A stretch of 64,000 nt of DNA, from NCBI RefSeq assembly GCF_030013595.1, contig NZ_CP122769.1; one strand, given 5' to 3'. A program made the position numbers and the translations under genes. The notes below the pieces were generated by a model. The model had not been told where the DNA came from. It ran no database searches and saw only the letters and a program-made list of their open reading frames with translations. How positions within the stretch are numbered: the first letter of the stretch is position 1; every line of letters starts with the position of its first letter. Source of the stretch: Escherichia coli. GTDB lineage: Bacteria; Pseudomonadota; Gammaproteobacteria; Enterobacterales; Enterobacteriaceae. Positions 1,477 to 43,489 of this stretch are shown here, piece by piece.

Positions 1477-1998
1477 ATGAATTTTCAAATTAACGAAGTT
1501 TTTAATAAATTTGCTGCTGTTATAAAATCGCGCATCGTCAATGAACCATCGTCATGCTATTTGCTGCATGATAATGAGATAGATATAACGATTTTGAAAC
1601 ATAGCATATTAGAAAATGACAGAAACCTGTTGTACGTAGTTCGTCCTTCAGGAACGTGTTTGTTGCGTTGTGACAAATATTTCTATCCGAAATATTATCT
1701 TCGTTGCCGTGGAGATTATAAGTCATTCATATATGTCCATCTTGATCTACATAGTGGTGAAGCTAAAGAAATCACATGGGAGCAAGCAGACGATATGCTG
1801 TCTAGTCCAGGAAAACCCCCATTAAAAGGGAATCTTGGACGATTTGAGTATATAAAAGTTGTGGTTGAGGACCTTCGTATTCGAGGTTACGCTGATTATC
1901 TTCCTGCGTATAATCTTGATGACCTTCGCCGTTTTGCCTTACAGGACGACCGCCCATCCCTTGTCAGATACATTGACAATGTCATGGCAACGGTCTGA
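1477..1998 (+). CDS. hypothetical protein
   Basis: 173-codon ORF, no recognisable motif. Confidence 0.5.
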   Translation: MNFQINEVFNKFAAVIKSRIVNEPSSCYLLHDNEIDITILKHSILENDRNLLYVVRPSGTCLLRCDKYFYPKYYLRCRGDYKSFIYVHLDLHSGEAKEITWEQADDMLSSPGKPPLKGNLGRFEYIKVVVEDLRIRGYADYLPAYNLDDLRRFALQDDRPSLVRYIDNVMATV

Positions 1999-2076
1999 TT
2001 GATTGCTAATTGATTTACATATTTTCCCTGATGGCCAACCTGCATCAGGGAGGCCTCAATAACGAATGGAGGCTGT

Positions 2077-2955
2077 ATGAAGTTAGCTACGGACCTGGTA
2101 AAAGCTATTTTGATTAGAAATGGCGTTGAACCAGTAAATATAAGCGAATCATCTAAGTTATCTTTGAAACAACCACTGACAGAACTTAAATTCAGTTTAT
2201 ATTTGCGAACTGAGCATTTATCTCACTTCCTACCCGGTTATGTTTATTCTATAAAAGAATGTCCACTGTCATATGACATCGGGATCGAAATTCAGAAAAT
2301 CTTCGAAAGTTTACATTTGTTAAACGAAGAATTTGAATCCCTCGGTTTTGTTTCTGTATGGATAGAAATGCATCAAAGCATTTTTGAACAAAGTCGGTTT
2401 AAGAAAAGTAACTTTACTTTTCGGGAGGAAGAGGTCGAGCTTGCTAAAGGGCTTGTTTGTTCTCACAATTCACAAATAAGTAATGCGGCTTATTTCTGGC
2501 TTCAGCACTTTGAGGAGTTTATGATTTATGTTCGTAATAAGCTTATCGACCTCTTTCGAGAGGCCTATGACCTGATCCTTGGAATGCAGCAAGTATTTTT
2601 CATTCGGGAAAAGGAAGAGCTGTTGAAAACTATAAGTTATGGCGATGAGCTGTATGAGGTGAAATTCATGGCGGCTGAGCTTTACTCTATCGAACAGAAC
2701 TTAAAGTGTTCTGAATCGATAAGTACAAAATCTCAAGCTTCGGCATATATTAACCGCATCCGTGAGTTTGTGCGTTCGGGGTGGAGGCAGGGCTATATAG
2801 TCTGCCATCATAAGCGAAGTAATCAAATTTCATCATTGTCATTACCGATGTACTTGAAAGATACGTCAGGCCGAAGTGCTCGAAAGCGAGTAAAACGTCT
2901 TATATCTTCTACAGTTTGTGGTAGAAATAAAGATTTAGGTCTTACAGATTTTTAA
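2077..2955 (+). CDS. hypothetical protein, paralogue family member 1
   Basis: 292-aa ORF; N-terminal pattern DLVKAILIRNGV shared with ORFs at 3026, 4030, 7147, 8257; preceded by hairpin ccctgatg/catcaggg at 2027-2051. Confidence 0.55.
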   Translation: MKLATDLVKAILIRNGVEPVNISESSKLSLKQPLTELKFSLYLRTEHLSHFLPGYVYSIKECPLSYDIGIEIQKIFESLHLLNEEFESLGFVSVWIEMHQSIFEQSRFKKSNFTFREEEVELAKGLVCSHNSQISNAAYFWLQHFEEFMIYVRNKLIDLFREAYDLILGMQQVFFIREKEELLKTISYGDELYEVKFMAAELYSIEQNLKCSESISTKSQASAYINRIREFVRSGWRQGYIVCHHKRSNQISSLSLPMYLKDTSGRSARKRVKRLISSTVCGRNKDLGLTDF

Positions 2956-2973
2956 TTAAATTATACCCATGTG

Positions 2974-3009
2974 GGGATCACACCCCATATGGGAGTGATC
3001 CCTTTTTTT
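2974..3009 (+). terminator. GC-rich hairpin plus T7 run (terminator-like)
   Basis: gggatcac ... gtgatccc inverted repeat followed by ttttttt. Confidence 0.55.
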
Positions 3010-3025
3010 ATTGAGAGAGGATCAC

Positions 3026-3961
3026 ATGAAAATTATCGAAAAAATCATTAATGCCTTTTTGGTTGTTCAACATAAAAAAATACAGGTTAAAAACATTACA
3101 TTTTTAGACAATGGGCAGGGCATGTTCTCTGGTATGTCTTTTGATGCTGATGTTTCACTGGAGTTTATGTATGAATCAGCAAAAGCATATAGTTCTTGTT
3201 TCTTTGATATTCCCTTTCCAGGTTTTGAAGATGCAAATCTGGAGGAAATTACGAAATTTCAATTAGATGCTTTGAAGCAAAGAAAGAATCATTCTTTCTT
3301 TGTTAACCATTTGAGGTTTCCTATAGTTTTAAGGGAAGGGTGCAAAATCGAAAGAGGAGAAGTCTATTCAATTTCGAATTGCACTTATAATAAAGAAAGA
3401 TTGCAGTATCTTTTTTCTCAGGATATTTACGGTAAGTTGTATAATTCCTTAGAGAAAGAATTAAGCTCGTTTTTCTCATTTATCAATGTTGAGGTGCACG
3501 AGTTGTTAAAAGATGCTGTATGCTTTGCATTAAAAATCCTGAATAAGATATCTTTGGATACACCTGAAAGACTTATTAAAGCTTTTAATTATCGTGACTG
3601 GTATTGTAGTTACGATGTTGAGCTTTTTAGGAAAGGCTTACCTGGTCATATTCTGGAAGAGCTCATTGCTCCAGATATCTTACTTTCAGACCTTAACGGT
3701 TGTAGAAAAATACTTAGAAATGCAAAACGATTTCTAAATGGACATACACAAACCAATTGTGTTTATATTAAATATGAATGGTGGTTGGGGCCTGTTGATA
3801 CCTCACACTCAGCTAAGTTGATGTCTGACAAAGAAATTAATAACCGAAGTGACTTGAAGAATTTTTCAAAGGTCTTTTTCAAAGAGTGTTTAAGTTCTGG
3901 TAAGTCGGAATATGAAAACCATCTTAGTGAAAAAGAACATGCGCTTCGCTATAATTATTAA
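3026..3961 (+). CDS. hypothetical protein, paralogue family member 2
   Basis: ATG at 3026 with RBS agagagg upstream (ORF-track TTG start at 3011 less likely); N-terminus KIINAFLVVQ fits family pattern. Confidence 0.55.
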   Translation: MKIIEKIINAFLVVQHKKIQVKNITFLDNGQGMFSGMSFDADVSLEFMYESAKAYSSCFFDIPFPGFEDANLEEITKFQLDALKQRKNHSFFVNHLRFPIVLREGCKIERGEVYSISNCTYNKERLQYLFSQDIYGKLYNSLEKELSSFFSFINVEVHELLKDAVCFALKILNKISLDTPERLIKAFNYRDWYCSYDVELFRKGLPGHILEELIAPDILLSDLNGCRKILRNAKRFLNGHTQTNCVYIKYEWWLGPVDTSHSAKLMSDKEINNRSDLKNFSKVFFKECLSSGKSEYENHLSEKEHALRYNY

Positions 3962-3974
3962 TTAAAATTATTTT

Positions 3975-4003
3975 CTCCCATAGGGATTTCTCCCTATGGG
4001 AGA
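3975..4003 (+). repeat. 13-bp-arm perfect inverted repeat (hairpin) between paralogues
   Basis: tctcccataggga-ttt-tccctatgggaga. Confidence 0.6.
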
Positions 4004-9795: not shown

Positions 9796-10386
9796 ATGAT
9801 TGGAGAAAGTATTTTTGACTGGGTAATTTACGGAATATCCATTTTGATATTTGCCTCAGCACTAATTGAAGGAAAGACAACTCGCTACCCAGCACTTTTT
9901 TTCTATGGGAGTTTAATTTTAATGTTAATCCTGATAGTTGCTGGAGGCCTTAACTGGTGGTTCTACAGGTCAAAATATGGCGCAGTAATCGTTATCTTCA
10001 CAGTGGTTTCTTTACTGATGACTCGATTCCGCCTGGTCATATATAAATTAAGATTAAGAAAGTTAGTTTCAGAGATCAGATTTCGTATAAAAACGGGTTT
10101 TCGTATAATTCTTGTTTTGTCGGATAATGAGGATGAGCGTAATGTTCTGCTGTCTATGCTTAGCAACGTATTGCCAGAGCAAACGCTTATTCACACGCGT
10201 GATGCTCTCGGACCTCATTCAGGGCCTATCCTAAAAGCTCTTGAGCTACATCATCAACAGGGAACAGGTTACATACTCGTCTGTGAACAACAAATCTCAG
10301 CGCGTACGTGGTTGAGTATCGTAGAAAATGGGAAACCTGATACATCTATAGCTGTTAATTTTCATTCGATCCCAGAAATGGAGTGA
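9796..10386 (+). CDS. hypothetical membrane protein (about 3 N-terminal TM helices)
   Basis: Hydrophobic segments ISILIFASALI, LILMLILIVAGGL, AVIVIFTVVSLL. Confidence 0.5.
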   Translation: MIGESIFDWVIYGISILIFASALIEGKTTRYPALFFYGSLILMLILIVAGGLNWWFYRSKYGAVIVIFTVVSLLMTRFRLVIYKLRLRKLVSEIRFRIKTGFRIILVLSDNEDERNVLLSMLSNVLPEQTLIHTRDALGPHSGPILKALELHHQQGTGYILVCEQQISARTWLSIVENGKPDTSIAVNFHSIPEME

Positions 10387-10393
10387 TTTTTCA

Positions 10394-10651
10394 ATGAGTA
10401 GAACCGTTTCACAAAGTGTCACAGAAGATTGTCTTTTTGATACCCGCACACAAGTCAGATTACAACTAAGTCGAAGCGTTCATAAAACGCTGGCATCTGC
10501 TAAAGAAATTTTACAGGGAAGGGGGGTTGATTCGGTCTCTATTGAAGATCTTGTGCGAGCCTGTCTTGAAGAGAACCAGCCAATTGATCTCGCCTCACTT
10601 TACCTTGAAAATCTCTTAAAACAGAAAGGTACCAGCATTTGCGATTTTTAG
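10394..10651 (+). CDS. hypothetical protein
   Basis: 85-aa ORF, 8-nt spacing from upstream gene. Confidence 0.4.
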   Translation: MSRTVSQSVTEDCLFDTRTQVRLQLSRSVHKTLASAKEILQGRGVDSVSIEDLVRACLEENQPIDLASLYLENLLKQKGTSICDF

Positions 10652-10724
10652 TGTTTTCAAACCTATTAGATAAAATGCCGGTTGTGTTTATATAACATCA
10701 ATAATTTCATGCAACAGGTAAAAC

Positions 10725-11261
10725 ATGAGTACTCAAAAGCAACTTTCCAGAACAACCGGCACTGAACGTATGTTTAAGGAAGAGCTGGCGTTATCCTTAA
10801 TTTGTTGGGTTTTCACCAGTCCATTTACCAACTGGACCGATAAAGTCTTCAGTGGTATTGAAGTTCCGTCTGAAGGACCGTCAACATTACTGGGTGAGGC
10901 TGAAAAATTCTTTCGTTTTGTCGTTAATGAAGAAGGCTACGACGCAGGAAGGGCTGCTCTTGGTCTTGACCTATGTTGTTTTTCACTTCCGTCGTGTTTG
11001 TTCCCGGACGCTGCCCTGTCTGAGGAAGAGGTTATGAGTAAGTTAACCGGAGAAGTTATCCATGGGATTCTTCTTTCCTTACCTGAATTTATTGATATGC
11101 CAGAAGTGCTCGCTTACCAGGTCAGGGATGAAATTCTTGCTTTTAACACTCGCTGTGGAGACGGGATCTTTCATGGTTGGAACACGGCTTCAGAATTGTG
11201 GAAGTTTGAAATCTTTCCCCGCACCACCATCATGATGCAGCATACTTCGGCAATACATTAA
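10725..11261 (+). CDS. hypothetical protein
   Basis: 178-aa ORF. Confidence 0.45.
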   Translation: MSTQKQLSRTTGTERMFKEELALSLICWVFTSPFTNWTDKVFSGIEVPSEGPSTLLGEAEKFFRFVVNEEGYDAGRAALGLDLCCFSLPSCLFPDAALSEEEVMSKLTGEVIHGILLSLPEFIDMPEVLAYQVRDEILAFNTRCGDGIFHGWNTASELWKFEIFPRTTIMMQHTSAIH

Positions 11262-11277
11262 AATTAGGCGGGGCAGA

Positions 11278-11724
11278 ATGCATAAAAAACTTTTTCTTCT
11301 CGAATGGAAACCCTGTCAGAGCCGCGTATGGGCCGGTTGGATGGCCCTGTGGTTGACTATCAGTTTTCTGATGTTATCTGCCTTGCTTATGACAGATCAT
11401 CTCCTGAACAAAGTCATCCTGCCGCCAACATGGTTGTTGATCTGGTTTTCGCCAATGCTGGGGTTTTTGATAAAAGTTCGCGTCGTCGAAACTCAACATT
11501 TCCTGGAGCATGACCTCTGTGTTGCAGGTTTCTCTTTTTACCGCTGGAAGAGGTTAGTTTCTCCCGGGCTTTGGTCAGTTGACTGTATAAATGGTCGTTT
11601 TCGCCTCAATCGGATCACCCAGGTGGGTAAGACTATCCACTATCCATGGCGTCTCCATTATCATCCTTTGTTCATGAGCCCTATCGAACATAAATCGCAT
11701 GCTGTGAAAGCTGTTTCAAAATGA
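11278..11724 (+). CDS. hypothetical membrane protein
   Basis: Hydrophobic N-terminal half (WMALWLTISFLMLSALLM). Confidence 0.4.
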   Translation: MHKKLFLLEWKPCQSRVWAGWMALWLTISFLMLSALLMTDHLLNKVILPPTWLLIWFSPMLGFLIKVRVVETQHFLEHDLCVAGFSFYRWKRLVSPGLWSVDCINGRFRLNRITQVGKTIHYPWRLHYHPLFMSPIEHKSHAVKAVSK

Positions 11725-11796
11725 CTTCTTTAGAGGTTTACATGACATTTATGTTCTGCAAGGTCAGCCAGGGCAGCAAAATTGATTTGAAATAAC

Positions 11797-12777
11797 ATGA
11801 GCCTGGAGAAACGTATGAGTTATGACGATTTGCCCTATTTTCGTGACCAGATTCTGGAACGTATCGACTCGCTTAAGTGTTTTCTTTCGAACACCCCCCC
11901 GCTGATGGCAAACCTGATGACTGTCTCCACCGTATCTCGAACAGAAGAGCGACTGAAGCAGGTTAAACCCATCAGGGTTAGTGTTAAAGACGATGCTTCG
12001 GTTGAGGAAATTATTCAGGCACTTACTGACATCTGTGTGGATGACATAGAGTCATTAAGTCATGATTCCACCAAAGTGACCACTAAATACCCGGGTCTTA
12101 TCATTGTCCCAGAAAGAGCAGATCTTCTCGAAAGCTTGATCACATCTATAAATGAAGCAAAAAATGATTTTGCTGCGGCAATGAGGCGTATCGATAATAA
12201 AAAGAATGTCCGTTTTGATAAAGTGCACAAGAAGCTCCCGGGCCTTGTCGCTATGCACTCAACAAGAAATGTCCTTTTCATCAAGTCCCAGCTTAAAAAA
12301 GTTACTTTTTCATGGCGGCTAAACCGAAACCAGGAAGTTAAAACAGCAGAGCAACTTGTGAGTTTGTTGGAGCGCAGGAGAGCCTCAGAAGTAAAAAATG
12401 TAGCAACTACCAATTTGAATGTCGTGTCTAATATCGATAAGGCTTTACACCGTCTTGAATTTCACCCACTGAAGCAGGGCGAATCTTATCGCCTTTGTCG
12501 AACTAACTCTTTCCCTGTTCCGATTGCTCACATTTTTGCATTTAGGCCTGAAGGGCAGGAACGAAACGGGAATAAATATGCTGAGACTGATTATTCAGTA
12601 GTAAAAGCATCCTTGCCCATTTTCGCAGCAGGCAACATACCTCAATTAAAAACGCTCTCTGACTGGGCTCCTGAAAACAGCCAGGGCCCGTCCAACCAAC
12701 GGAAGCTGAGCCTGAAATATACAGAACTCGTGCCGGGGGCTGAGCTGGGCATTTTCATTGTCAGCCCCGAAAATTAA
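11797..12777 (+). CDS. Tus-like replication terminus-binding protein homologue
   Basis: Segment FDKVHKKLPGLVAMHSTRNVLFIK..FSWRLNRN recalls the E. coli Tus region [29 protein letters not shown] (from memory); similar length. Confidence 0.5.
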   Translation: MSLEKRMSYDDLPYFRDQILERIDSLKCFLSNTPPLMANLMTVSTVSRTEERLKQVKPIRVSVKDDASVEEIIQALTDICVDDIESLSHDSTKVTTKYPGLIIVPERADLLESLITSINEAKNDFAAAMRRIDNKKNVRFDKVHKKLPGLVAMHSTRNVLFIKSQLKKVTFSWRLNRNQEVKTAEQLVSLLERRRASEVKNVATTNLNVVSNIDKALHRLEFHPLKQGESYRLCRTNSFPVPIAHIFAFRPEGQERNGNKYAETDYSVVKASLPIFAAGNIPQLKTLSDWAPENSQGPSNQRKLSLKYTELVPGAELGIFIVSPEN

Positions 12778-12786
12778 GGAACAACA

Positions 12787-13692
12787 ATGCAATGGATTTC
12801 CACAGCCAGCCAGAAAATCGATGAGCGTCTCTATCGTGTCTGCGTCTGGGTAAAAAAATATCACGCTGATGCGATTAACCGCGTTGTGCTTACCGTTGAT
12901 CTAAGTAAAGCCCGACATGACCCTGACGAGGACCAGGTAAGAGCAGAGCTGCTGTGCGGCCATTATTTTTTGCTTCGTAAGGAAAACGCTTCGAACTCTG
13001 CGCCTGACGATCAAAAGTTTGCTTTCCTGCCTGACGGGCGCAATCTGTGTTGGCAGACCGCAACCCCGGTGCTTCAGCATCTCCTGCTCAATAAAAACGT
13101 TCCTGAGTCGCTGAGGTTGCTTACGGACTACATACATATGCGTCTGGCCAGGCTGACAATGGTACCAATGTCCGGAACCATCATGAACGAGGCTCTGCTG
13201 GACAGCATCAGCTGGGTTAAGGTGGATTTGACCTACTTCTGGCAGTATGAACAGCTCAGCTCTCATCTGGGACCCATCCAGATAACCCACAAGGCACTAG
13301 TACGCTTCGGGCATCTGGCAAAGAATGATGAAAACTCCAGTGCCATAAGAATCCTGCGTCAGCGTCTGTCTTCAGAATTCTTACAAGAATTTCAGATGGC
13401 TGAGGATGAGCTAAAGCGCAAACAGTCGTTGATGGGCACCATGGACGTGAAAATGCTGTTTCATGCTCATTACCCCAGCCAGAAGATGCTGGTGGCTCGA
13501 TATAAAAATGGTTGGGTAATGGTGGATTGTTTTCTGTTTCATCATACCAAACCTAAGAAAAAAGCAAAAAACAAAACTACTGTGGCTAAGCCTCAACTTA
13601 AAGAGACTAAAAGAGAAGGGAGTGAAAATGGAACTGGGCATTATGGTGTGCATCGTGTTGTTACTCTCCGTGGCGGCGGCGTGGATCAGTAA
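12787..13692 (+). CDS. hypothetical protein
   Basis: 301-aa ORF with Lys-rich C-terminus. Confidence 0.5.
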   Translation: MQWISTASQKIDERLYRVCVWVKKYHADAINRVVLTVDLSKARHDPDEDQVRAELLCGHYFLLRKENASNSAPDDQKFAFLPDGRNLCWQTATPVLQHLLLNKNVPESLRLLTDYIHMRLARLTMVPMSGTIMNEALLDSISWVKVDLTYFWQYEQLSSHLGPIQITHKALVRFGHLAKNDENSSAIRILRQRLSSEFLQEFQMAEDELKRKQSLMGTMDVKMLFHAHYPSQKMLVARYKNGWVMVDCFLFHHTKPKKKAKNKTTVAKPQLKETKREGSENGTGHYGVHRVVTLRGGGVDQ

Positions 13693-13972
13693 TAAGACAG
13701 TTGATTTGCTCGAAAGATTCTATTTCAAGCGTCCGCTGAGCATGGAGTACGCGGCATGGCTACGTGTAATGTGTGCAGGCTTGTTATTGGTTTTTATTCA
13801 GGTTGCTCCACAATTTACACTTCTGTATACCCTTAAACTTGTCACGCTTATTAATCTTGGAATCCAGACAATGAAATTAAATGGCGTGTACAAATATAAA
13901 AGAACGGGAATTTTGCCTCCGGGAGGGGCACTCTCTAATCTCACCAGACTTAACCCGTTCAAGAAAAAATAA
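13628..13972 (+). CDS. small hypothetical membrane protein
   Basis: Two hydrophobic helices (MVCIVLLLSVAAAWI, MCAGLLLVFIQ). Confidence 0.35.
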   Translation: MELGIMVCIVLLLSVAAAWISNKTVDLLERFYFKRPLSMEYAAWLRVMCAGLLLVFIQVAPQFTLLYTLKLVTLINLGIQTMKLNGVYKYKRTGILPPGGALSNLTRLNPFKKK

Positions 13973-13993
13973 AGTTATGCGCCCGTGAGGGCG

Positions 13994-15184
13994 CTATTCA
14001 TCAAAGGCATTTCGCATAAGCTTGATCATTGCTTTTTTACCAGCTTCAATATTACGAATGTAGCGCATAACCATTTCTTCATTCGACCAGTTCCCCATTT
14101 CCATAATCTGTGGTAGCGAGTAACCTTCAATATTTAGCTGTATCGCTCCGCCTACACGAACGCTGTGCCCTGTCCAGTAACGAGTTTTAGTCTCATTTGG
14201 ATAAAGCTCATTCCACATCTCTTTAAATGCTCGTAAAAGGGAATTTTTGCTGAGCATACCGGCATCGTCCACAGTGTCTTCTTCATCTTCATCTTCATCG
14301 TTCAGAAGACTTTGCTTAGCACGATAGGGTAGGTTATGCCTTTTAAGAAGTTCAGATAGCTCATTCCCCTTACTCCGAAGCTTCCAGCCGGGTGGCATAT
14401 AGCCTGTATCATGGAAATTTACGGCCTGGAAAAGGAATTCATCCGGATGACTGTGCTGATCCATTTTCACGAGGTTCATCAATCTCAAGAGGCAGTTAGT
14501 TAACTGACGTGTCAGCCGGTAGGTAAGAAGTGTACTAATGTTCGTTTTTGTACGGTATACCGTCAGGTTAAATTCACCGGTCATACTATCCAGAGACAGA
14601 TCTTTCAGACGTATACGTCGAATTTCGGATGAACGGAGCAGTGTTTCAAAGCCTGTCCAGATCAGGCACAGGTCACGAAGTTTACGAACTGAGTTTGTAG
14701 TACTGCGTAACTTTATCAGAGCCTTGAGATCGCCAATAAGAAAGGGAGTTGCCTGTTTAGTCGTCTTTCGCTTCCGGGCTTCCGATTGTTTTAAGGCTTC
14801 CAGCATGTACCATGCTTCAGACGTAATAATCCCGGGCAGGTTAAGCCCTTTTTTATGGATACTATTTAAGGCCTGAAGACAGCTGTTTATGCTGCTTCGT
14901 GACAATTTGCCTTCAAGATGCCCCATAAACGCAAGCAGAGCGTCCTCAGACACGGGGAGCGAACTTACTGGCCAGTCTGTATGCAACCGGGCATTCGCCA
15001 GATACCATTCGTTCCATACTCGTAGCCAGTGCAGATAGGTTTTAGCAGTGTTGTATCTCAGATGGGAAAAGTAACGGATCAAGCGTGAAAGCTGTTTATC
15101 ATGGTTGCCGAACGTTTCCAGCTGCTGATGCAATTCGCTTTCCGAAAACTGTCTGATCACTGATTGATTCTTCATCCTGCTCAC
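13994..15184 (-). CDS. tyrosine site-specific recombinase (phage integrase family)
   Basis: C-terminal catalytic region GHSVRVGGA..LPQIMEMGNWSNEEMVMRYIRN (R..H..R..Y signature). Confidence 0.75.
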   Translation of the reverse strand: MSRMKNQSVIRQFSESELHQQLETFGNHDKQLSRLIRYFSHLRYNTAKTYLHWLRVWNEWYLANARLHTDWPVSSLPVSEDALLAFMGHLEGKLSRSSINSCLQALNSIHKKGLNLPGIITSEAWYMLEALKQSEARKRKTTKQATPFLIGDLKALIKLRSTTNSVRKLRDLCLIWTGFETLLRSSEIRRIRLKDLSLDSMTGEFNLTVYRTKTNISTLLTYRLTRQLTNCLLRLMNLVKMDQHSHPDEFLFQAVNFHDTGYMPPGWKLRSKGNELSELLKRHNLPYRAKQSLLNDEDEDEEDTVDDAGMLSKNSLLRAFKEMWNELYPNETKTRYWTGHSVRVGGAIQLNIEGYSLPQIMEMGNWSNEEMVMRYIRNIEAGKKAMIKLMRNAFDE

Positions 15185-15345
15185 CGGGATACACTGGTTT
15201 TAATTACAGGTCATTTTAGCACTCATGTACCTGGTTATGAACAGGGTGGAAACAACGAAAAAGGTTGTGAAATCGTTAGGCTTAAGTGAAAAATGATATT
15301 AAGATTATCCTTGGCCAGTTGAGGCCTGTCTAAAGAAGGTTGATT

Positions 15346-15558
15346 ATGTCTGACACAAAGCAGTCTTATTTAATGAAATTCCGTAAGTGTAGTTCGTTCG
15401 AAACGCTCGAAAAAGTATTTGAAAGGTTATGTGAAAAAAACTCGGGTGTCGCCTCTCTTGAAATTTCTGGTGCTTATGATCATCGTAAAGCCGAACTGAC
15501 AATGAAAAAGTTATATGACAAAGTTCCTGCGAGTGTGTGGACCTTTGTTCGCGAGTAA
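15346..15558 (+). CDS. hha: Hha/YmoA-family expression modulator
   Basis: YLMKFRKCSSFETLEKVFE ... DHRKAELTMKKLYDKVPASVW closely matches Hha (..LRRC..ETLERV.. ADHRLAELTMNKLYDKIP..VW). Confidence 0.85.
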   Translation: MSDTKQSYLMKFRKCSSFETLEKVFERLCEKNSGVASLEISGAYDHRKAELTMKKLYDKVPASVWTFVRE

Positions 15559-15888
15559 TTATTAATATTGGCACAACAAAAAGACTGTGCCTGGATTTGA
15601 AAATAGTTTATGCCCCTTTCGGGGCTAAAGGCATTGTAATAGCCTGTCTTTTAAAGTTGTTTATTAAGTTCGGAGAAAAACTTTAATCATAAGCCAAGCC
15701 CACTGCTAAATACATCCGATATTCTCCTTCATTTTATTAGAAGTGATAAAAGTTACTTTACCTAAACTTCTCTCTCAATATTTGTAAGGCTCTCATTTGA
15801 TTTTTGTCAAACATTAATCTGGAAGACGGAAAAATCATTTCTTTTAATACGTTTTACAGAAATCCTCCTCCGTTATTTCGGATATAGT

Positions 15889-17001
15889 TTGAATCATTAT
15901 CAAAAACGGGGTGCAGCCATGCGTAAGAGTTATACATTTGGTATTCCATTTGGACTCCAGCGTGAATCAGGACTCTTTTTAGATATTACAGAGGTCAGCC
16001 GGGGTATTGACTGTAACTGCATCTGCCCCGCTTGCAAAACTGATCTGTTAGCAAAGCAGGGGGAGGTCAAGCTTTGGCATTTCTCACACAGTACAGCTGT
16101 AGCCGGTGACTGTGATGGTCTGATGGAAGCCATCCGGGGAAAGATTATTGAAGTCATCAACGAGCACCAGGTTCTTGGTTTCCCAAATCTTCTCGCTGGC
16201 GACGATGGTGGGCCGGTTTCACTGAATGAGGTTAGTGGAAGCGGCAGTATGTTCGGAGGCACAGCTGATCTGTTCGTAAAGGTTAATGATTTATGTGTGG
16301 CCGTCTTTCTGGACAGGGATCGCAGCATTTCAGAGAAGTTAACCTTTGACCATCTTCATCCTTCCGAAAGAGTTGCCGCATTGCGTATCGATCTTCCTGA
16401 TATTGAATATGAAATCAGTCAGGTGCAGCTCGGGCGACGTAAAACAACATACAGTGAGTGCATTGAAAGCCTGATCATTGATGAGACCAGTTCCCGGGAA
16501 TGGCTATATCATCCATTAATGCATGAACTTGAATCTGAACCTCTTCAGGAGTATCGGGGACGGGAGCCTTCAGAGGAAGGGCCTCTTCTTCAGCGCCTTG
16601 CTGACTGTAAGATGAAATTGCCTGATATCCTTCCGGGCAGTCATAACGCGCTAGTCAGGTTACAGCAGGATACGATTGTATGTCTGTGTCGGTTAACGGT
16701 TCGGGCTTATGACATCGCTCAGACCGATGAATTTCCTTTGTTCCTTCGCTATTTCAGGTTGCACTGCCTGGAAAACAGCGAACATGTCAGTTACGAAAGA
16801 CTGATCTGCTGGCAGGAAATGATTTCAAAAACCCAGGAAGGCCAGTCCTTGACACAAAACGAACTTGAATATCTTCATGAGATTGTCCGCATCGCCTTTT
16901 ACAATCACCGGCTTAACAATGTCAGTATTTCAGATGTTAAAAACCATGACACTGGAAAGAAGAGCGGCAGGGTAGAGTCACAAAACTATTCACTTTTATA
17001 A
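15889..17001 (+). CDS. hypothetical protein with CoiA-like N-terminal zinc-finger/nuclease-type motif
   Basis: CNCICPACKTDLLAKQGEVKLWHFSH resembles the CoiA-family C-P-x-C ... HFxH motif. Confidence 0.4.
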   Translation: MNHYQKRGAAMRKSYTFGIPFGLQRESGLFLDITEVSRGIDCNCICPACKTDLLAKQGEVKLWHFSHSTAVAGDCDGLMEAIRGKIIEVINEHQVLGFPNLLAGDDGGPVSLNEVSGSGSMFGGTADLFVKVNDLCVAVFLDRDRSISEKLTFDHLHPSERVAALRIDLPDIEYEISQVQLGRRKTTYSECIESLIIDETSSREWLYHPLMHELESEPLQEYRGREPSEEGPLLQRLADCKMKLPDILPGSHNALVRLQQDTIVCLCRLTVRAYDIAQTDEFPLFLRYFRLHCLENSEHVSYERLICWQEMISKTQEGQSLTQNELEYLHEIVRIAFYNHRLNNVSISDVKNHDTGKKSGRVESQNYSLL

Positions 17002-17167
17002 ATAACTTGGGCTTTGCGCATTAAACCCTTGCCGCAGGCGGTGTACCGCATATCCGGCACAGACAGTCAGTTTTTTCTGGCAGCTTAAATTTGACACTGC
17101 TTAATATAGTGATTCATTAAACAGGTTCAGTATGCTGCCAGAACGTTTTAGTCGTAATGGGCGTCCG

Positions 17168-18721
17168 TTAGTTTTCAACTAACTGAACGACGACCAGCCT
17201 GCCGCCTTCCTCCTTTGACAGAACAAACTGAGCGTTATTCGTCAGTTCAATTTTTTCCCCAATGGCAATCTGTCGTTTATCCGGTAATGACATAAGCCCA
17301 TTTATGCCTTCATTTACTAACCACCACTGATCGTTATGGAAAACAAAATACCCAACTCGTTTCCTTTGTGCATCGGTTGTGCGCTCATTTGGCGCAATGA
17401 GGCGATTCACATGCCACGCATAGATTGACTGCCCGCTCCACACCATCAACCGGTGGTCGTCAGGACGATAACTGCCTTCCTTTCGGGATGAATATAAATT
17501 TAGAACCGGTAATTTACCCTTGTATGGCGTACCGCAGTAGGGACAAACCGGCTTTGTCTTACCTGAGAAAACGTACCATTTCTGTTCACACGCCTTGTTC
17601 TGGCAGGGCTGTATCAGATCGACTGTTTTAACCAGGGCACTTTCCCACTCATCGGCGGTCGGGCGTTTATTGGCATCGTGTAAGCCATCAATAAAGGCGC
17701 GTTCAAACAAAGGCGTCAAATAAGGGCCCATGATGGTGTAAGGAATTTTCTCCGGGTCAGCCCAGGGCAGTGAAAAGGAGGATATCTGACTGACTTTGAC
17801 TGCATTGCTTTTGTCTGTCGGATGTTCAATGAAGAGTGCCTTCTCACCCATAGATAAGGTCTCATCACGTACTTCATCCGACATGTCATGTATTTTTCCG
17901 CCACGTAGCGGATGACGGAAGAACAGATACATGTAGATAAGCACCGACAGCGCATGACGGTCAGTAGAAATGCTTGGCAATACGCGGTTCGGATCCTCTT
18001 TGGAAAGATGGCTGGTTTTCACCACTTCCGGAGCGATAAAATCCGGGGTGCCCACGACGTCGGGAGGATACTTTCCAGGGACAACCAGGCCGTCTACGTC
18101 AATGATGCAGGCATGTCCCATTTCTGGATCGATAAGCACGTTTTTATAGCTTAGATCGCTGTGACAGAGACCTGCCGCATGCATCCTTCTGACGGCTCTT
18201 GTTAGCAGCAGACAGACCTTGAGATAGGTAAGCGTATTGCCTCGTTCACGTGGGTCGAGAAATTTATTCTGGTTGCTGGCGCTGGCAAACCATTTGCCTT
18301 CCTTTTCACGGCCTTTTATGCCAAGAAAATCATCGTTTTTAGAGCCGTATTTAAAGAAAAAGTAGCTTTTGTAGGTTGGAACCACGATGCCGATTTTATC
18401 CCCATGCTCAACAACGTGGGTCGGCCAGCAAAACAGGTCCTTCCAGTATTCACCTCCGGACTGGCCAAAAATGTTTTGCCTGTAGCGTCCGGTGATCATA
18501 TCAATCCGATCCCGGGCCTGCTCGTTCTGCGGTTTATGATAAAAAGCGACGACGTATGATTTATCAGGCGAGAAGTAAACATCCTTCATCGAGCCCGAAC
18601 CAATTACCTCGTCAACATACTGGACTGTTTCGCCGTCCTTTGTTTTGCACGTAACAATATTTGCCATATTGATCACCGAAGAAGCGTATCCCTTACCACA
18701 ACACCGCAATAGTGCGGTCAT
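17168..18721 (-). CDS. Ser/Thr protein kinase with C-terminal zinc ribbon and FHA-like domain (ter-linked)
   Basis: Catalytic loop HSDLSYKNVLI, DVDG (DFG-like), GTPDFIAPE; CQNKACEQ..CPYCG zinc ribbon; WWLVNEGINGL FHA-like; alternative start at 18667 (MANIVT) avoids overlap with phosphatase gene. Confidence 0.8.
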   Translation of the reverse strand: MTALLRCCGKGYASSVINMANIVTCKTKDGETVQYVDEVIGSGSMKDVYFSPDKSYVVAFYHKPQNEQARDRIDMITGRYRQNIFGQSGGEYWKDLFCWPTHVVEHGDKIGIVVPTYKSYFFFKYGSKNDDFLGIKGREKEGKWFASASNQNKFLDPRERGNTLTYLKVCLLLTRAVRRMHAAGLCHSDLSYKNVLIDPEMGHACIIDVDGLVVPGKYPPDVVGTPDFIAPEVVKTSHLSKEDPNRVLPSISTDRHALSVLIYMYLFFRHPLRGGKIHDMSDEVRDETLSMGEKALFIEHPTDKSNAVKVSQISSFSLPWADPEKIPYTIMGPYLTPLFERAFIDGLHDANKRPTADEWESALVKTVDLIQPCQNKACEQKWYVFSGKTKPVCPYCGTPYKGKLPVLNLYSSRKEGSYRPDDHRLMVWSGQSIYAWHVNRLIAPNERTTDAQRKRVGYFVFHNDQWWLVNEGINGLMSLPDKRQIAIGEKIELTNNAQFVLSKEEGGRLVVVQLVEN

Positions 18722-20333
18722 CGTGGTTCCCTGTGGAGAAAAAGTTAAGCCAGTCGCCTAACCTCTCAGGCGCAATACTGGCGTCTGTAAGGACAGGGAT
18801 GAGCTCATCAAGGAGACGGGTCCATTTTTCGTCACTGCGAAGCCCGTTATCTGTCTCAAACAGAGGGTCTGATACGCCATCTGTCATGAGGATCAAGTGA
18901 GATACATCATTCCATTTACCCACGCTGATGCGGCCGCTAAACGAGGGGTCTGCGATAATGCTCTGGTCAAGAAAGCGGGTTTGTCCTGCGTATTCTCCGC
19001 TATCGGGATTTCCCAGTATCCTGACTTTACCGGAAGGGCTGTATGCACCTATCGCACCATCACCAAGCCAGAATGCAGCCGCAAACAGCTCGTTATCAGT
19101 TCGTAGCGCTACAGTTGCCAGTAGGGTTGTTGAATAGGATTTCACAGGTTGTTCTGCACAAATGGCTTCGTTCTGGATACTGTTGACCGCGAGCGTAGCT
19201 GCCTGTTTAAAATGATGAAGCATGGCGTTTATGGTTGCCTGCTGATCGCTCCCTTCCCACGCCGTGATGTGCTGCTTTAGATGGACGCCTTTCAAACCAC
19301 TGAGCTGATTGAAAAGGTAATCGCCAGCCGTTTGGACTGCAATCCGGGAGCCTTCCCGGGAATTTACCGCACTACCGGCCCCGTCTGCGACCAGCATGAC
19401 AGACCATCCTGTTTCCTGGCAGTGGTTGATATAGAAGTCGTCATCTCTGAAGCTCCCGGCATGCTCATGAGATCGTCCCCGGCGACTGGCGGCAGCAATA
19501 CGTATGTCACCCCTGACCAGGCCAGCAGCGTCCAGATGGGACTTAGGGTAGGAAGCGTCTGCTGGTGGCTCTACCACCTTCCACAGGCTTCTCGGATCGG
19601 GATTGACTATAAAAAGCTGTTTTGTTTCGCATTCGTCGTGCGAAGCGCATGACCAGAGTACTGAAAGCTCTATATCGCCGCTTTCGGTGGGTGTACCTGT
19701 CAGCAACTTATGCTCTTTGTCAAAGGTCAGGCCAATGTTCCTGGGAAAGACAACGTCCCTGACAGTAGCCTGCTGGCCCTCATCCAGAACTATAGCAACC
19801 GGCGAAGAGAAACGTTCGCCTGCGCGGGCGTTGGGAATAACTATTTTAGCTCTCGGGGGAACGGCAGGTGGCACAGCTAATCCGGCCCGCTGCTGGCCTG
19901 TCGGTATCTGCCCGGGTTTTAATACCAGGGAAGACAGGTTTTCGTCTTCCCTCTGTGCTGGTTTATCAAATTCGTAATAAGGCATCAGCTTCCAGAACGG
20001 AGGATGAGGTTCATTTTCTGGCAGGGGTTGCAGTAATGGTGTATCGGTAGCGTCAATGCCCGGGTTATCAGCATCACTTACGACCGTTTGTTGCTGATCG
20101 GAAAGGCTGGATGCTGACGAGGGGGCGATCTCTGCGTCGTTATAACCTTCGCTAACCCGCGCAGATAAACCCTGTGCAAGGCTCTCAATCCGCTCTTTAA
20201 GCCGCATAATCTCTTCAGTAAGGGAAGGGTCGTGCGATAGAAGAAAAAGCCGCTCACCTTCTACAGGGTGGCCCAGCTCAGACAGCACTAAGCGGATAAT
20301 CTTCTCTTCAAGTAAAACATTTTGCGACATCAA
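18693..20333 (-). CDS. PP2C-family Ser/Thr protein phosphatase (ter-linked)
   Basis: PP2C motifs RRGRSHEHAGSFRDDDF, VADGAGSA, LILMTDGVSD. Confidence 0.8.
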   Translation of the reverse strand: MMSQNVLLEEKIIRLVLSELGHPVEGERLFLLSHDPSLTEEIMRLKERIESLAQGLSARVSEGYNDAEIAPSSASSLSDQQQTVVSDADNPGIDATDTPLLQPLPENEPHPPFWKLMPYYEFDKPAQREDENLSSLVLKPGQIPTGQQRAGLAVPPAVPPRAKIVIPNARAGERFSSPVAIVLDEGQQATVRDVVFPRNIGLTFDKEHKLLTGTPTESGDIELSVLWSCASHDECETKQLFIVNPDPRSLWKVVEPPADASYPKSHLDAAGLVRGDIRIAAASRRGRSHEHAGSFRDDDFYINHCQETGWSVMLVADGAGSAVNSREGSRIAVQTAGDYLFNQLSGLKGVHLKQHITAWEGSDQQATINAMLHHFKQAATLAVNSIQNEAICAEQPVKSYSTTLLATVALRTDNELFAAAFWLGDGAIGAYSPSGKVRILGNPDSGEYAGQTRFLDQSIIADPSFSGRISVGKWNDVSHLILMTDGVSDPLFETDNGLRSDEKWTRLLDELIPVLTDASIAPERLGDWLNFFSTGNHDDRTIAVLW

Positions 20334-38970: not shown

Positions 38971-39402
38971 GTGATAACACAAACAGGCCCCTACAGCGTA
39001 AGGATTGTGATGGACGATAAAGAGCAGTTTACGAATCTTGTGGCAAAGCATGCCTCCGGACTCACCGAAGAGCAGCTGGCCGGGTACGATGCCTGTTCCC
39101 TGGATGGTGAATGCGTCACGCCTTCATACGAGGTTTTCCGGGGGTATCGTACCCGCCACACACTGGATGAATTTCTGGAGATGGCCATATCGCTGAATGC
39201 CATCCACCCGGATGAATATTTAACGGATATGCTGCTGAAGCCTCATGAGGTGATCGGCGCTCTGGCCGATGAAGGCGACCAGCTGAACAACGCCACCCCG
39301 GTTTATTTCTTTCCGGATACCGGCGTCTATGCAGCGGCCGTTAGTGAAACCCGGGTGCTCGATGCCTGGCTTTGCTGGCCATGCTACCCGGCGAACTGGT
39401 AA
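38971..39402 (+). CDS. hypothetical protein
   Basis: 143-aa ORF; likely start at internal ATG about 39010 (MDDKEQ). Confidence 0.4.
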   Translation: MITQTGPYSVRIVMDDKEQFTNLVAKHASGLTEEQLAGYDACSLDGECVTPSYEVFRGYRTRHTLDEFLEMAISLNAIHPDEYLTDMLLKPHEVIGALADEGDQLNNATPVYFFPDTGVYAAAVSETRVLDAWLCWPCYPANW

Positions 39403-39975: not shown

Positions 39976-40002
39976 ATCAGAGGAAACTACTGAGGCCAGC
40001 TT

Positions 40003-40299
40003 ATGATCAATAATGATTACCCGTTAAACACGCTCAACCAGCTGCGTCCCTTGCTCATTGGTTTTCGCAAGGCGAATGGCCTGACGCAAAAAGACCTGTC
40101 CGAAAGGTTAGGCGTCACTCAACAGACATACTCACGTCTGGAAGCCAACCCTGCCAGTGCGAGCATTGAACGGCTATTCAAGGTGTTTTCCATCCTGGGC
40201 GTAAAAATCAGCTTCTCCTCGGCAACCACCTCTTCAGAGAGGAAGCAGACGGAAGAAATGCTTAAATCAAACTCACCTGCACGACAGGAGGATTGGTAA
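40003..40299 (+). CDS. hipB: HipB-like HTH (XRE family) antitoxin
   Basis: HTH GLTQKDLSERLGVTQQTYSRLE; directly upstream of hipA. Confidence 0.85.
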   Translation: MINNDYPLNTLNQLRPLLIGFRKANGLTQKDLSERLGVTQQTYSRLEANPASASIERLFKVFSILGVKISFSSATTSSERKQTEEMLKSNSPARQEDW

Positions 40300-40303
40300 C
40301 GAT

Positions 40304-41629: not shown

Positions 41630-41689
41630 CAGCCGCAATTTATAGTGTGCATGTTTTCAGAATAGCTGATGTAAGCGTGAGGATTCAGT

Positions 41690-41896
41690 ATGACTGAAGA
41701 ACAAAAAAGAATAGAGCGGGCTATTGAGTTGGCTTGTCGTTACGGCGGAACCGATGAAATGCATCATCTGCAATGGGTCGTGGATCAGATGGTAAGAGAA
41801 CTTGCTGGAGAACGTTATGCACAGATTGTAGCTGATGCCACCAGCGGAGAAGATGGGCCTGATACTTACAAATGGAGTGTTGGGATCGCGCCTTAA
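41690..41896 (+). CDS. small hypothetical protein
   Basis: 68-aa ORF. Confidence 0.3.
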   Translation: MTEEQKRIERAIELACRYGGTDEMHHLQWVVDQMVRELAGERYAQIVADATSGEDGPDTYKWSVGIAP

Positions 41897-41997
41897 CAGC
41901 TGTCGGTCTGGGGGTGAAAACGTATTCTTCATTCAGCGAATTCCCAGGCTTCACATTAAGACTAAAGCGGCGGCCGCAGTAACGTAAGAGAAAATAA

Positions 41998-42408
41998 ATG
42001 GCTATTTTAGCAATCATTGCAGTTATCGCCCTGGGTGGGTACGCCTACGGATTTATTAAAACCCGTGAGCTGAGCGCTTTGCGTAAAGAAATGAAACTAT
42101 ACGTGGATCGCATGGAAGCGGCGGAGCTGGACTTACACGCAATCAGAAGTGTAGCGGAGCACCGGTTGCACGGTGCAGGTAAACAGTTTGCCGACCTTTA
42201 CAGCCGTATCGACGGTGCAACTGTGACGCTGACACCCGAAGATCAGCTGTTACTGGCAACGATGCCATTTAATATTCAGGATGTAGAAGACATCGTAAAC
42301 GAGCGCGGTCCAAAGACAATTAGCGGCCGTCCATTCTGGGAAGTTGAGCCAGGCCTGCATGATTATGAATATGGCCCGCAATATCCGTATTTCCCAGACC
42401 AGCGCTAG
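41998..42408 (+). CDS. hypothetical membrane-anchored protein
   Basis: N-terminal TM helix MAILAIIAVIALGGYAYGFI. Confidence 0.45.
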   Translation: MAILAIIAVIALGGYAYGFIKTRELSALRKEMKLYVDRMEAAELDLHAIRSVAEHRLHGAGKQFADLYSRIDGATVTLTPEDQLLLATMPFNIQDVEDIVNERGPKTISGRPFWEVEPGLHDYEYGPQYPYFPDQR

Positions 42409-42420
42409 GAAGAGATCAAG

Positions 42421-43236: not shown

Positions 43237-43489
43237 AGGGTGACAGCCAGGTTGTGCCTAAACCTGGCAGTAAAACCTGCATGCCACAAACCTTTAAATT
43301 CTGACTCAAGAGCCTGGCACAAGATAAAAGCGAAATGAAAAGGTTAAAACCGGTGCACCAGACCTCTTAGGTTTAATACCTGAGCCAGTATACTGGCAGT
43401 CTCAGGTAAGTGGGTATCATACACTTCAGAAATATCCACACCGAGATAACCGCAACAGTTAAAGAGCTAAAAAGGACGGTTTTAATTTT

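Follow-up and report, generated by a model that had tools for sequence, protein, structure and literature searches.

A CoiA-like gene in a 64,000-nucleotide stretch of Escherichia coli plasmid DNA (contig NZ_CP122769.1; hereafter, the window) belongs to the backbone of IncHI-type conjugative plasmids. As read from alignments, its product has lost the canonical catalytic residues of CoiA, and two of the three conserved active-site acidic residues are absent. Comparative genomics contradicts a role for the gene in the TerY-P/ter system beside which it lies. The best overall explanation, which we favor with modest confidence, is that the protein is an IncHI backbone factor and a probably non-catalytic derivative of CoiA that would act via its zinc finger and C-terminal domain. 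Within this explanation, the identity of the protein, its architecture, and its independence from ter are parts that we hold with high confidence; the non-catalytic adaptor mechanism is a tentative proposal to which we give somewhat less than even odds.

Gene model and domain architecture

The gene and the modules of its product are laid out as follows.

15889 to 15918, plus strand: in-frame 10-codon extension from a TTG, missing from the PGAP model and from 8 of 9 aligned orthologs
15919 to 17001, plus strand, including the stop codon: CoiA-like coding sequence, 360 amino acids, WP_001232449.1 (open reading frame, PGAP start, conserved N terminus, purifying selection)
15940 to 16113, plus strand: CoiA_N zinc-finger module, residues ~8 to 65, IPFG...C32xC34xC36PxC39...H54FxH57...C65 (PF25164, hhalign, conservation)
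16114 to 16533, plus strand: restriction-endonuclease-like α/β core, residues ~66 to 205; active site degenerate (M69, D117, F130, D132)
16534 to 16638, plus strand: linker, residues ~206 to 240 (pLDDT of 63 to 81, and below 50 at residues 217 to 219)
16639 to 16953, plus strand: family-specific C-terminal helical domain, residues ~241 to 345, with a conserved YFRxxC motif

The initial annotation described an open reading frame at 15889 to 17001 on the plus strand. That frame is present and its translation includes GIDCNCICPACKTDLLAKQGEVKLWHFSHST as described, but the start needs correction: the TTG at 15889 merely opens the frame in the mechanical sense, and the gene runs from 15919 to 17001, beginning at the ATG that PGAP also selects, 10 codons inside. 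A GGGG Shine-Dalgarno-like run lies 8 to 12 nt 5' of this ATG, and the N terminus MRKSY is found in all nine aligned orthologs, one of which (P0008) carries a different, 3-residue extension introduced by the gene caller. On this sequence evidence, the stretch from 15889 to 15918 is probably untranslated. A promoter scan of the plus strand 5' of the gene returned no sigma-70-like site at the threshold of the tool; the 360 nt preceding the gene have a GC content of 34%. Among IncHI lineages, pS is about 0.8 (saturated) and pN is 0.16 to 0.29, with dN/dS of 0.08 to 0.35 where it could be computed; these values indicate that the gene is real and under purifying selection.

The CoiA-type C-P-x-C...HFxH signature noticed at the N terminus proved genuine and well outside what chance would give. 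PF25164 (Pfam CoiA_N) matches residues 33 to 59 of the 360-residue protein (E = 1.5e-7) and all 128 of the aligned relatives, across which C34, C36, C39, H57, and C65 are invariant and the Cys and His residues of the module as a whole are invariant or close to it. In hhalign, C36, C39, H54, and H57 fall opposite C30, C33, H48, and H51 of CoiA, whose aligned residues in this module also include C57. Nearly half of the residues that are invariant family-wide (23 of 47) lie in the zinc-finger module, with few in the core and several in the C-terminal domain. The protein had been regarded as an orphan, a description that does not hold for its N-terminal 210 residues, which have more than 2,000 relatives. 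Similarly, of the ~300 residues thought to be unassignable, residues 66 to 205 form a CoiA-homologous restriction-endonuclease-like core, and the C-terminal ~120 do remain unassigned.

The C terminus is made up of helices and lacks CxxC pairs. The C-terminal domain of CoiA, PF25166, gave no Pfam match, and the hhalign alignment to CoiA ends by residue 136. A PADLOC match to a CorA-like protein over the C-terminal helices (E = 0.0023) was rejected as compositional. NCBIfam yielded no match for the 360-residue protein or nine relatives, and PHROGs none for the CoiA-like protein. In PADLOC, relatives weakly match the N terminus of DruB (E = 0.007 to 0.07). Our literature search returned nothing relevant on WP_001232449.1, DUF7828, PF25164, or CoiA-like proteins on conjugative plasmids.

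A nuclease-like core with a degenerate active site

AlphaFold2 models have a pLDDT of 91 for the full-length protein and 93 for residues 1 to 215. With the broad profile A4, hhalign aligned the protein to Bacillus CoiA with a probability of 95.8% (E = 8e-9) across the zinc finger, helix α1, and strands β2 and β3; the family-only profile A1 aligned only the zinc finger (85%), and the extension into the core thus depends on the broader A4. The Bacillus comparators were database proteins that carry PF06054 (PF25164+PF06054+PF25166). PF06054 itself matched neither the 360-residue protein nor any of the 128 relatives, even at E ≤ 0.1. Given that A4 nevertheless aligns to CoiA, we conclude that the core is homologous and that the protein lies beyond the boundary of the Pfam family. 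Sequence searches of the PDB with profiles A3 and A4 gave nothing meaningful.

What the plasmid protein shares with CoiA (CoiA/YjbF of Bacillota) is the order of zinc finger, core, and C-terminal extension; a zinc finger that is followed by a conserved cysteine; and the α1-β2-β3 core of the PD-(D/E)xK fold, in which D117 retains the β2 aspartate. Both catalytic glutamates are lost. M69 stands opposite E64 of CoiA in α1 and F130 opposite E113 in β3 (Bacillus subtilis numbering), so that the CoiA motif PD-ExQ (PMC1189080) is replaced by AD...FxD. M69 is invariant in nine orthologs, which have F or Y at position 130, and both glutamates are kept in only 27 to 30 of the 128 nearest relatives. In Streptococcus pneumoniae CoiA, either D95A or E105A abolishes function (bioRxiv 10.1101/2024.02.06.579203). 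From this pattern of substitutions, the loss of CoiA-type DNA cleavage appears most likely. The 360-residue protein is also acidic (pI 5.2 and net charge −16, versus a pI of 9.5 for CoiA), the core alone having a pI of 4.65, and this charge points away from a basic DNA-processing enzyme of the CoiA kind.

These features bear on the idea that the protein is a genuine CoiA ortholog and, like its Bacillota counterparts, resolves transformation D-loops. Its CoiA_N domain and homologous core favor such a reading, as does the name “competence protein CoiA family protein” in some RefSeq records. Against it are the missing glutamates, the lack of matches to PF06054 and PF25166, an unrelated C-terminal domain, the acidic rather than basic charge, and the location of the gene on plasmids of Enterobacterales, in contrast to a chromosomal competence-regulon gene of Bacillota; CoiA is reported to be restricted to Bacillota, with YraN performing its job elsewhere (bioRxiv 10.1101/2024.02.06.579203). 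We regard orthology in this sense as extremely improbable. Because two of three conserved active-site acids and the CoiA C-terminal domain are absent, the RefSeq name is misleading. YraN (UPF0102, PF02021) is a small one-domain protein that has the canonical catalytic residues and lacks a zinc finger (bioRxiv 10.1101/2024.02.06.579203), and it shows no specific relationship to the plasmid protein.

The closest known group comprises proteobacterial proteins with CoiA_N and DUF7828, in some cases followed by DUF7830 or a zinc ribbon, which UniProt names “Competence protein CoiA-like.” They align over residues ~9 to 210 (phmmer E of about 1e-15; E = 2.5e-17 over residues 9 to 210 for the DUF7828-bearing relative P0031) and are predicted to fold alike (Foldseek TM of about 0.7). 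C34, C36, C39, H57, C65, and W195 are invariant in both groups and H198-P199 is near-invariant, and most of these proteins likewise lack both glutamates and have aromatic residues instead. DUF7828 was matched in 35 of the 128 relatives at E ≤ 0.001 and in 86 at E ≤ 0.1, but the plasmid protein falls below the Pfam threshold for this domain and has no T-H-P-G-R motif after β3. A ~105-residue helical domain replaces the C-terminal CxxC...CxxC zinc ribbon (DUF7830/Zn_ribbon_11), and the gene is fixed in IncHI backbones, whereas the others are scattered in variable islands. The 50 matches listed by Foldseek against the AlphaFold database were all proteobacterial proteins automatically named “CoiA-like,” with no clearly genuine Bacillota CoiA among them.

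IncHI backbone context and the neighboring ter island

The genes and boundary that define the context of the CoiA-like gene are the following.

11797 to 12777, plus strand: Tus-like replication terminus-binding protein gene, conserved neighbor (PF05472, E = 6.5e-19)
13994 to 15175, minus strand: tyrosine recombinase, conserved backbone neighbor (PGAP; PHROG integrase, E = 4.7e-21)
15346 to 15558, plus strand: hha/ymoA-family gene, conserved same-strand upstream neighbor (PGAP; PF05321)
17002 to 17167, no strand: 166-bp spacer separating the stop codons of the convergent CoiA-like and kinase genes, and left boundary of the ter island
17168 to 18721 (PGAP, 17168 to 18667), minus strand: TerY-P kinase gene, a neighbor outside the feature

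The window belongs to an IncHI2 plasmid and is identical at the DNA level (100%) to many IncHI2A records. Relatives of the protein are encoded in 2,809 plasmid records: ~1,120 at ≥95% identity, 291 at 60 to 80%, and 1,389 at <60%. The examples that we examined were typed as IncHI2A at ≥95% identity, as IncHI1B (R27-like) at 60 to 80%, and as Klebsiella IncHI1B/IncFIB at <60%. Synteny was assessed, with collinearity from tblastn, in IncHI2, IncHI1-type, and Klebsiella IncHI1B/IncFIB plasmids, three metagenomic lineages, and one lineage at 33% identity.

The order Tus-like, recombinase (minus strand), Hha (plus strand), CoiA-like (plus strand) is kept down to 34% identity, and Tus-like, recombinase, CoiA-like is kept at 33%. 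The Tus-like gene is found at the corresponding place in all IncHI-type orthologous loci, and a tyrosine recombinase occupies the equivalent position in L002 to L005, L007, L016, and L021. A PF05321 HHA gene lies directly 5' of the ortholog in L002 to L005 and L007; in IncHI1, the two are parted only by an IS1-RepE-IS1 insertion. A 52-residue open reading frame 5' of the L021 ortholog was considered as an Hha and rejected as not Hha-like. In the P0013 lineage (44% identity), which resides on a different plasmid type, the gene comes 18 nt after an AAA ATPase gene and a DUF6933 gene, and neither Hha nor Tus was found nearby; the IncHI maintenance-module context is therefore not universal. The DUF6933 protein (L013) and a 237-residue neighbor in L021 are unrelated.

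On its other side, the CoiA-like gene adjoins the ter-linked kinase-phosphatase-vWA (TerY-P) module, and the initial annotation, placing it directly upstream of the kinase-phosphatase-TerY triad, had suggested that it might be an accessory or effector of that system. In IncHI2, the kinase gene is indeed only 166 bp away, and a kinase gene annotated as this type occurs in Klebsiella IncHI1B/IncFIB plasmids, ~7.6 kb downstream of the CoiA-like gene. The part of PMC11090510 that summarizes Anantharaman et al. 2012 reports TerY-P triads alongside DNA restriction and processing genes. The CoiA-like gene is not upstream of the triad, however; it lies on the opposite strand, tail-to-tail with the kinase gene and convergent with the triad operon, and the spacer contains a terminator-like hairpin (17028 to 17009, minus strand). 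Conserved linkage to ter loci, set beforehand as a test of the proposal, was not found, and each occurs without the other. Orthologs at 33 to 75% identity sit in IncHI contexts that have no ter genes. Conversely, all five of the chromosomal E. coli ter islands listed encode the triad at ~98 to 99% identity and have no intact CoiA-like gene; homology ends exactly at the kinase stop codon (window position 17167) in four of them. The fifth, in strain M9, has an intact ter and retains just 145 nt of the CoiA-like gene, from its 3' end, next to an IS66 element. No adjoining TerY-P genes were seen among the distant relatives examined.

Relative to IncHI1, the ~22-kb ter island (window ~17.0 to 38.9 kb) is an insertion immediately 3' of the CoiA-like gene; in tblastn against IncHI1, collinear backbone genes restart at window position 39010. 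The gene adjoins the tellurite-resistance kinase module because the island inserted beside it, and an accessory or effector role in TerY-P is very improbable.

Possible functions of the CoiA-like protein

We postulate that the protein is a zinc-finger-dependent recognition or adaptor factor. The PD-(D/E)xK-like core shares an ancestor with the CoiA nuclease core and, its α1 and β3 glutamates having become M69 and F130, may now serve as a dead scaffold. The conserved face of the zinc finger would engage a nucleic-acid or protein ligand; since extended DNA binding fits poorly with the acidic charge, that ligand may not be DNA. The C-terminal helical domain, which is specific to this plasmid family, could contact a plasmid or host partner. 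Such a protein may take part in the maintenance or establishment of plasmid DNA, beside functions in replication termination, multimer resolution, and silencing by nucleoid proteins.

An alternative hypothesis is that the protein has kept nuclease activity through a rewired site, in which D117 of β2 and D132 of β3, two positions past the lost glutamate, bind metal and R135 or R73 supplies the positive charge, and that it cuts a plasmid-relevant DNA structure such as single-stranded DNA, a D-loop, or a junction. Of the 128 relatives, 125 have D117; D132 does not vary among the 11 full-length family members and, aligned with the Q of ExQ, should face the active site; and position 135 is R or K in 102 of the 128 relatives. 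The fold is well preserved in the model, and catalytic residues are known to migrate within the PD-(D/E)xK superfamily (PMC1189080). Yet bulky hydrophobic residues occupy both glutamate positions, and D117, kept in 9 of the 11 family lineages, is replaced by proline in P0010 and P0013, as R135 is by asparagine in P0015. The core is also poor in invariant residues and strongly acidic, and the E105A mutant of CoiA is dead. We consider both the rewired site and the proposed substrates unlikely.

The acidic, dead nuclease fold might instead act as an anti-defense factor or decoy of the plasmid, blocking a host nuclease, defense system, or recombination factor upon plasmid entry. This possibility draws on the net negative charge, on the maintenance of a dead enzyme fold under purifying selection, on the position of the gene next to the “stealth” gene hha on conjugative plasmids, and on the distant relatives that occur in defense or mobile islands, with Abi_2/SNF2 and with Cap4 nuclease/TIR/DruA. 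The zinc finger is also weakly similar to the DruB N terminus. On the other hand, the charge is nothing unusual for a cytoplasmic protein, whereas that of ArdA-type DNA mimics is far higher, and PADLOC and PHROGs together offered only the weak CorA-like match. A decoy of this sort seems quite improbable to us. Also improbable is a further reading, in which a dead or rewired CoiA homolog fixed in the IncHI backbone, usually with hha, protects or establishes the incoming plasmid as a decoy or adaptor; its zinc finger would recognize single-stranded or branched plasmid DNA intermediates, or else a nuclease or recombination protein of the host.

Multidrug, colistin (mcr), and metal resistance is carried to a major extent by IncHI plasmids, the backbone genes of which are for the most part functionally uncharacterized. 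For one of these, a tempting but mistaken guilt-by-association link to TerY-P/ter has been removed, and the analysis supplies candidates for testing: M69, D117, F130, D132, and the zinc-finger Cys and His residues, with Hha, the Tus-like protein, and the tyrosine recombinase as candidate partners. At present, the protein is an uncharacterized accessory backbone protein; a role as a plasmid establishment or anti-defense factor, if true, would be of moderate interest. About three-quarters of the sampled proteobacterial CoiA-like proteins lack both glutamates. If the decoy or adaptor reading is true, most proteobacterial CoiA-like proteins would be an unrecognized family, non-catalytic or mechanistically new, rather than competence nucleases.

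Gene model and place in the IncHI backbone

The 1.6 kb surrounding the target gene is 100% identical to many Escherichia coli and Salmonella IncHI2A plasmids, which identifies the window as IncHI2 plasmid DNA. The initial annotation put an orphan gene for a CoiA-like protein at 15889-17001, and the six-frame list does hold a 370-aa open reading frame (ORF) there on the + strand, with a TTG start and a translation that contains the quoted string GIDCNCICPACKTDLLAKQGEVKLWHFSHST. Its start did not stand: PGAP begins the gene at ATG 15919, a GGGG run lies 8 to 12 nt 5' of that codon, and MRKSY is the N terminus of all nine orthologs (51 to 75% identity). We therefore take the gene to be 15919-17001. 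Sequence comparison shows the gene to be genuine; the nonsynonymous difference between IncHI lineages is 0.16 to 0.29 versus saturated synonymous sites at ~0.8, and dN/dS is 0.08 to 0.35 wherever dS was computable. The features that bear on its context are the following.

11797-12777, + strand: Tus-like gene (PF05472, E = 6.5e-19), left of the recombinase gene
13994-15175, - strand: tyrosine recombinase gene, left of hha/ymoA
15346-15558, + strand: hha/ymoA gene, upstream neighbor of the target
15919-17001, + strand: target gene (PGAP, ATG start, 360 aa, WP_001232449.1, "hypothetical protein")
17168-18667 (PGAP model) or 17168-18721 (517-aa mechanical ORF, 18 codons longer), - strand: TerY-P kinase gene
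~17002-38900: ter island (TerY-P triad, terW, ATP-grasp/PRTase/StiP/HpcH biosynthetic genes, terZABCDE, vWA gene)

The order Tus-like gene, recombinase (-), Hha (+), and target (+) recurs across loci. It is kept in metagenomic and isolate lineages with 53 to 63% identity (loci L002 to L005), where ter genes are absent from the available 3' DNA (10 kb in L002 and L003; the contigs end 0.7 kb past the gene in L004 and 2.7 kb past it in L005). The same order is found in IncHI1-type plasmids (73% identity; L006 and L016, p109/9), which have no ter locus, and in Klebsiella IncHI1B/IncFIB plasmids (34% identity), in which the gene for a kinase annotated as the same type is found 7.6 kb from the target, past a RepB gene. 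In a lineage with 33% identity, the Tus-like gene and the recombinase are retained and Hha is missing; the lineage of the full-length relative P0013 (44% identity) belongs to another plasmid type with TrwB/TrwC, KfrA, and ParA/ParG. It is firmly supported that the target is an IncHI-type backbone gene.

Several further observations concern these plasmids. The hha-target intergenic region (15559-15918; 33.6% GC versus 46% in the gene) is 360 nt long, 2 to 4 times longer than in other lineages (85 to 190 nt), and a scan of it returned no + strand sigma-70-like promoter at the scan threshold. In IncHI1-type plasmids (L016 6482-9591; L006), hha and the target are separated by an inserted IS1-RepE-IS1 unit (RepFIA-type replicon), which sits exactly between them. 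Positions 9796-13972 hold about eight small-to-medium + strand ORFs, only the Tus-like one assignable to a family; this run is collinear between IncHI2 and IncHI1 (56 to 78% protein identity) and occurs in every metagenomic IncHI-like locus, which makes it a conserved block of the backbone. In P0013-type plasmids (L013 6521-11038; also L014 and L015), a tightly packed one-strand row encodes a 552-aa unknown protein, a 322-aa AAA_16/AAA_22 ATPase, DUF6933, and, last, the target homolog. In L013, an 18-nt gap separates the last two genes, with a resolvase upstream of the row and KfrA and an RNase_T-like exonuclease downstream.

Relation to the ter island

The gene had been described as directly upstream of the TerY-P triad (kinase, PP2C phosphatase, and TerY-C), with a possible accessory or effector role. 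All three triad genes are on the - strand and the target is on the + strand, with facing stop codons separated by a 166-bp spacer; the target is thus convergent with the triad, neither upstream of it nor in its operon. When IncHI1 (L016) backbone proteins were compared with the window by tblastn, they were collinear from 9931 to 16998, and homologs resumed at 39010-39399 (94.6% identity), 42421-43218, and 44527-45117. The ter island in its entirety makes up the ~22 kb in between; it is an insertion relative to the IncHI1 backbone, and the adjacency of target and kinase is a consequence of the insertion site.

Searched by megablast in a set of 5,426 complete genomes of E. coli, 15300-19300 matched 298 plasmid and 56 chromosomal places. 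Among the five chromosomal matches listed, four cover only query positions 1868-4001 (window 17167-19300, kinase and phosphatase, ~98.9% identity), with the kinase stop codon as their exact starting point. The complete ter island of strain NCCP15648 terminates with the kinase, beyond which there are only IS fragments. On the strain M9 chromosome (L023 4001-4306), the final 145 nt of the target gene (window 16857-17001) survive between an IS66 element and the kinase, a remnant which suggests that this ter island derived from an IncHI2-like plasmid context. Convergent orientation, orthologs without ter, ter islands without the target, and the inserted state of ter all speak against the accessory or effector role, and the lack of a conserved link to ter is firmly supported.

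RefSeq names for the TerY-P kinase vary ("lipopolysaccharide kinase InaA family protein," "protein kinase," "helix-hairpin-helix domain-containing protein"). To the right of the ter island, ~40000-43250 (NZ_CP031547.1 27612-30842) holds an HTH/HipA toxin-antitoxin pair and an HNH endonuclease gene, the latter common to IncHI1 (79% identity).

Domains and active-site residues

The sole Pfam domain of the protein is CoiA_N (PF25164; E = 1.5e-7, residues 33 to 59), which bears out the CoiA-type zinc-finger signature reported initially and was detected in all 128 aligned relatives. The resemblance is not new: the protein is already entered in UniProt as [quoted passage not shown] and in a number of recent RefSeq records as "competence protein CoiA family protein"; a literature search found no publication on the protein. 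Among 1.84 billion representative proteins, 2,369 relatives were found (E ≤ 0.001), with alignments nearly always confined to residues ~9 to 60 or ~9 to 210; the only full-length representatives were P0008, P0013, and P0015. In the 128-sequence alignment, C34, C36, C39, H57, C65, and W195 are invariant, and C32, P37, H54, F55, D117, H198, and P199 are nearly so.

The three examined loci that encode distant relatives of the N-terminal module are unrelated, variable regions: an Abi_2/SNF2/HTH island, a cassette-like array containing genes for SUKH and Barstar, and a Cap4-nuclease/TIR/DruA/IS66 island. The TerY-P triad adjoins none of them. The distant relative P0097, which keeps the canonical E/D/E residues, is preceded on two independent contigs (L019 4935-9053, L020 542-4744) by two conserved unannotated genes (517 to 545 aa and 450 aa), and the three may form an undescribed system; one contig is an island with Cap4 nuclease, TIR_2, DruA, IS66, and integrases. 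Weak PADLOC matches (E = 0.007 to 0.07) of the zinc-finger region of P0047, P0097, P0027, P0064, and others to the N terminus of Druantia DruB hint that DruB may start with a CoiA_N-like zinc finger.

An AlphaFold2 model built with the 128-sequence alignment (pLDDT 91, pTM 0.78) begins with a zinc-finger module that is small and rich in β structure. An α/β domain follows, in which helix 67-83 precedes strands through 118-122 and 125-132; then come a short helix, strand 152-158, and additional helices. A linker modeled with lower confidence leads to a helical C-terminal domain (helices 242-260, 272-283, 292-304, and 313-345). We compared a profile of the N-terminal domain with ten genuine Bacillus CoiA proteins (architecture PF25164+PF06054+PF25166), and it matched at 95.8% probability (E = 8e-9, 111 columns), the alignment starting in the zinc finger and continuing over helix α1 and the "RPD" strand to the "VEYQC" strand. 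By this model and alignment, the middle of the protein, part of the ~300 residues initially deemed unassignable, can be assigned. The C-terminal domain showed no relationship to any Pfam, PDB, or CoiA_C entry. Of 47 residues invariant in 11 full-length members, 23 fall in the zinc-finger module, very few in the core, and several in the C-terminal domain (R226, P239, L259, T260, Y278-F279-R280, C283, T312, and E315). The family is acidic (pI 5.2, net charge -16, core pI 4.65), versus a pI of ~9.5 for Bacillus CoiA. We regard as firmly supported a CoiA-homologous zinc finger and PD-(D/E)xK-like core joined to a lineage-specific helical C-terminal domain.

The active site of CoiA carries a variant motif, PD-ExQ (PMC1189080), and D95A or E105A abolishes transformation in Streptococcus pneumoniae (bioRxiv 10.1101/2024.02.06.579203). 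Target residues C36/C39/H54/H57 align with C30/C33/H48/H51 of Bacillus subtilis CoiA, C65 with C57, M69 with E64, D117 with D100, F130 with E113, and D132 with Q115. The α1 glutamate position is thus M69, invariant in the target and nine orthologs, and the β3 glutamate position is F130 (F or Y in 9/9 orthologs). As read from these alignments, the loss of two of the three conserved CoiA active-site acidic residues is firmly supported. Both glutamates are retained in only 27 to 30 of the 128 relatives, the others carrying F, Y, M, or W; given these substitutions, the canonical metal-dependent mechanism has very probably been lost in the target family. PF06054, the Pfam CoiA nuclease model, had no match in the target protein or in the 128 relatives. 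In roughly three-quarters of the sampled proteobacterial "CoiA-like" proteins, both glutamate positions are occupied by aromatic or hydrophobic residues, and D117, R/K at 135, and the W-x-Y-H-P motif are still conserved; despite database names, this large group probably does not consist of CoiA-type nucleases. Within the proteobacterial CoiA_N-DUF7828 group, the target is atypical, with no DUF7828 Pfam match and a helical domain replacing the zinc ribbon.

Proposed function

We tentatively propose that the protein acts noncatalytically in a plasmid maintenance or establishment setting, because its neighbors represent replication termination, site-specific recombination, and nucleoid-protein silencing. 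The conserved zinc-finger face would recognize a nucleic acid or protein ligand, the dead nuclease core would provide a scaffold, and contact with a partner would fall to the C-terminal domain. It seems less likely that the protein is still an active nuclease, with a rewired site built on D117 and D132: D132 is invariant in 11/11 full-length members and occupies the inward-facing ExQ +2 position, but D117, present in most family members, is proline in P0010 and P0013.

We consider an anti-defense decoy more doubtful still. Far less probable is a TerY-P accessory, given that its adjacency to the kinase results from where the island inserted. Least credible is a true CoiA ortholog, as the protein lacks the catalytic glutamates and matches to PF06054 and PF25166, and its taxonomic and genomic setting differs, so that it falls outside the defining features of CoiA. 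The main value of these results is that they correct both the association of this gene with ter and the misleading "competence protein" label.
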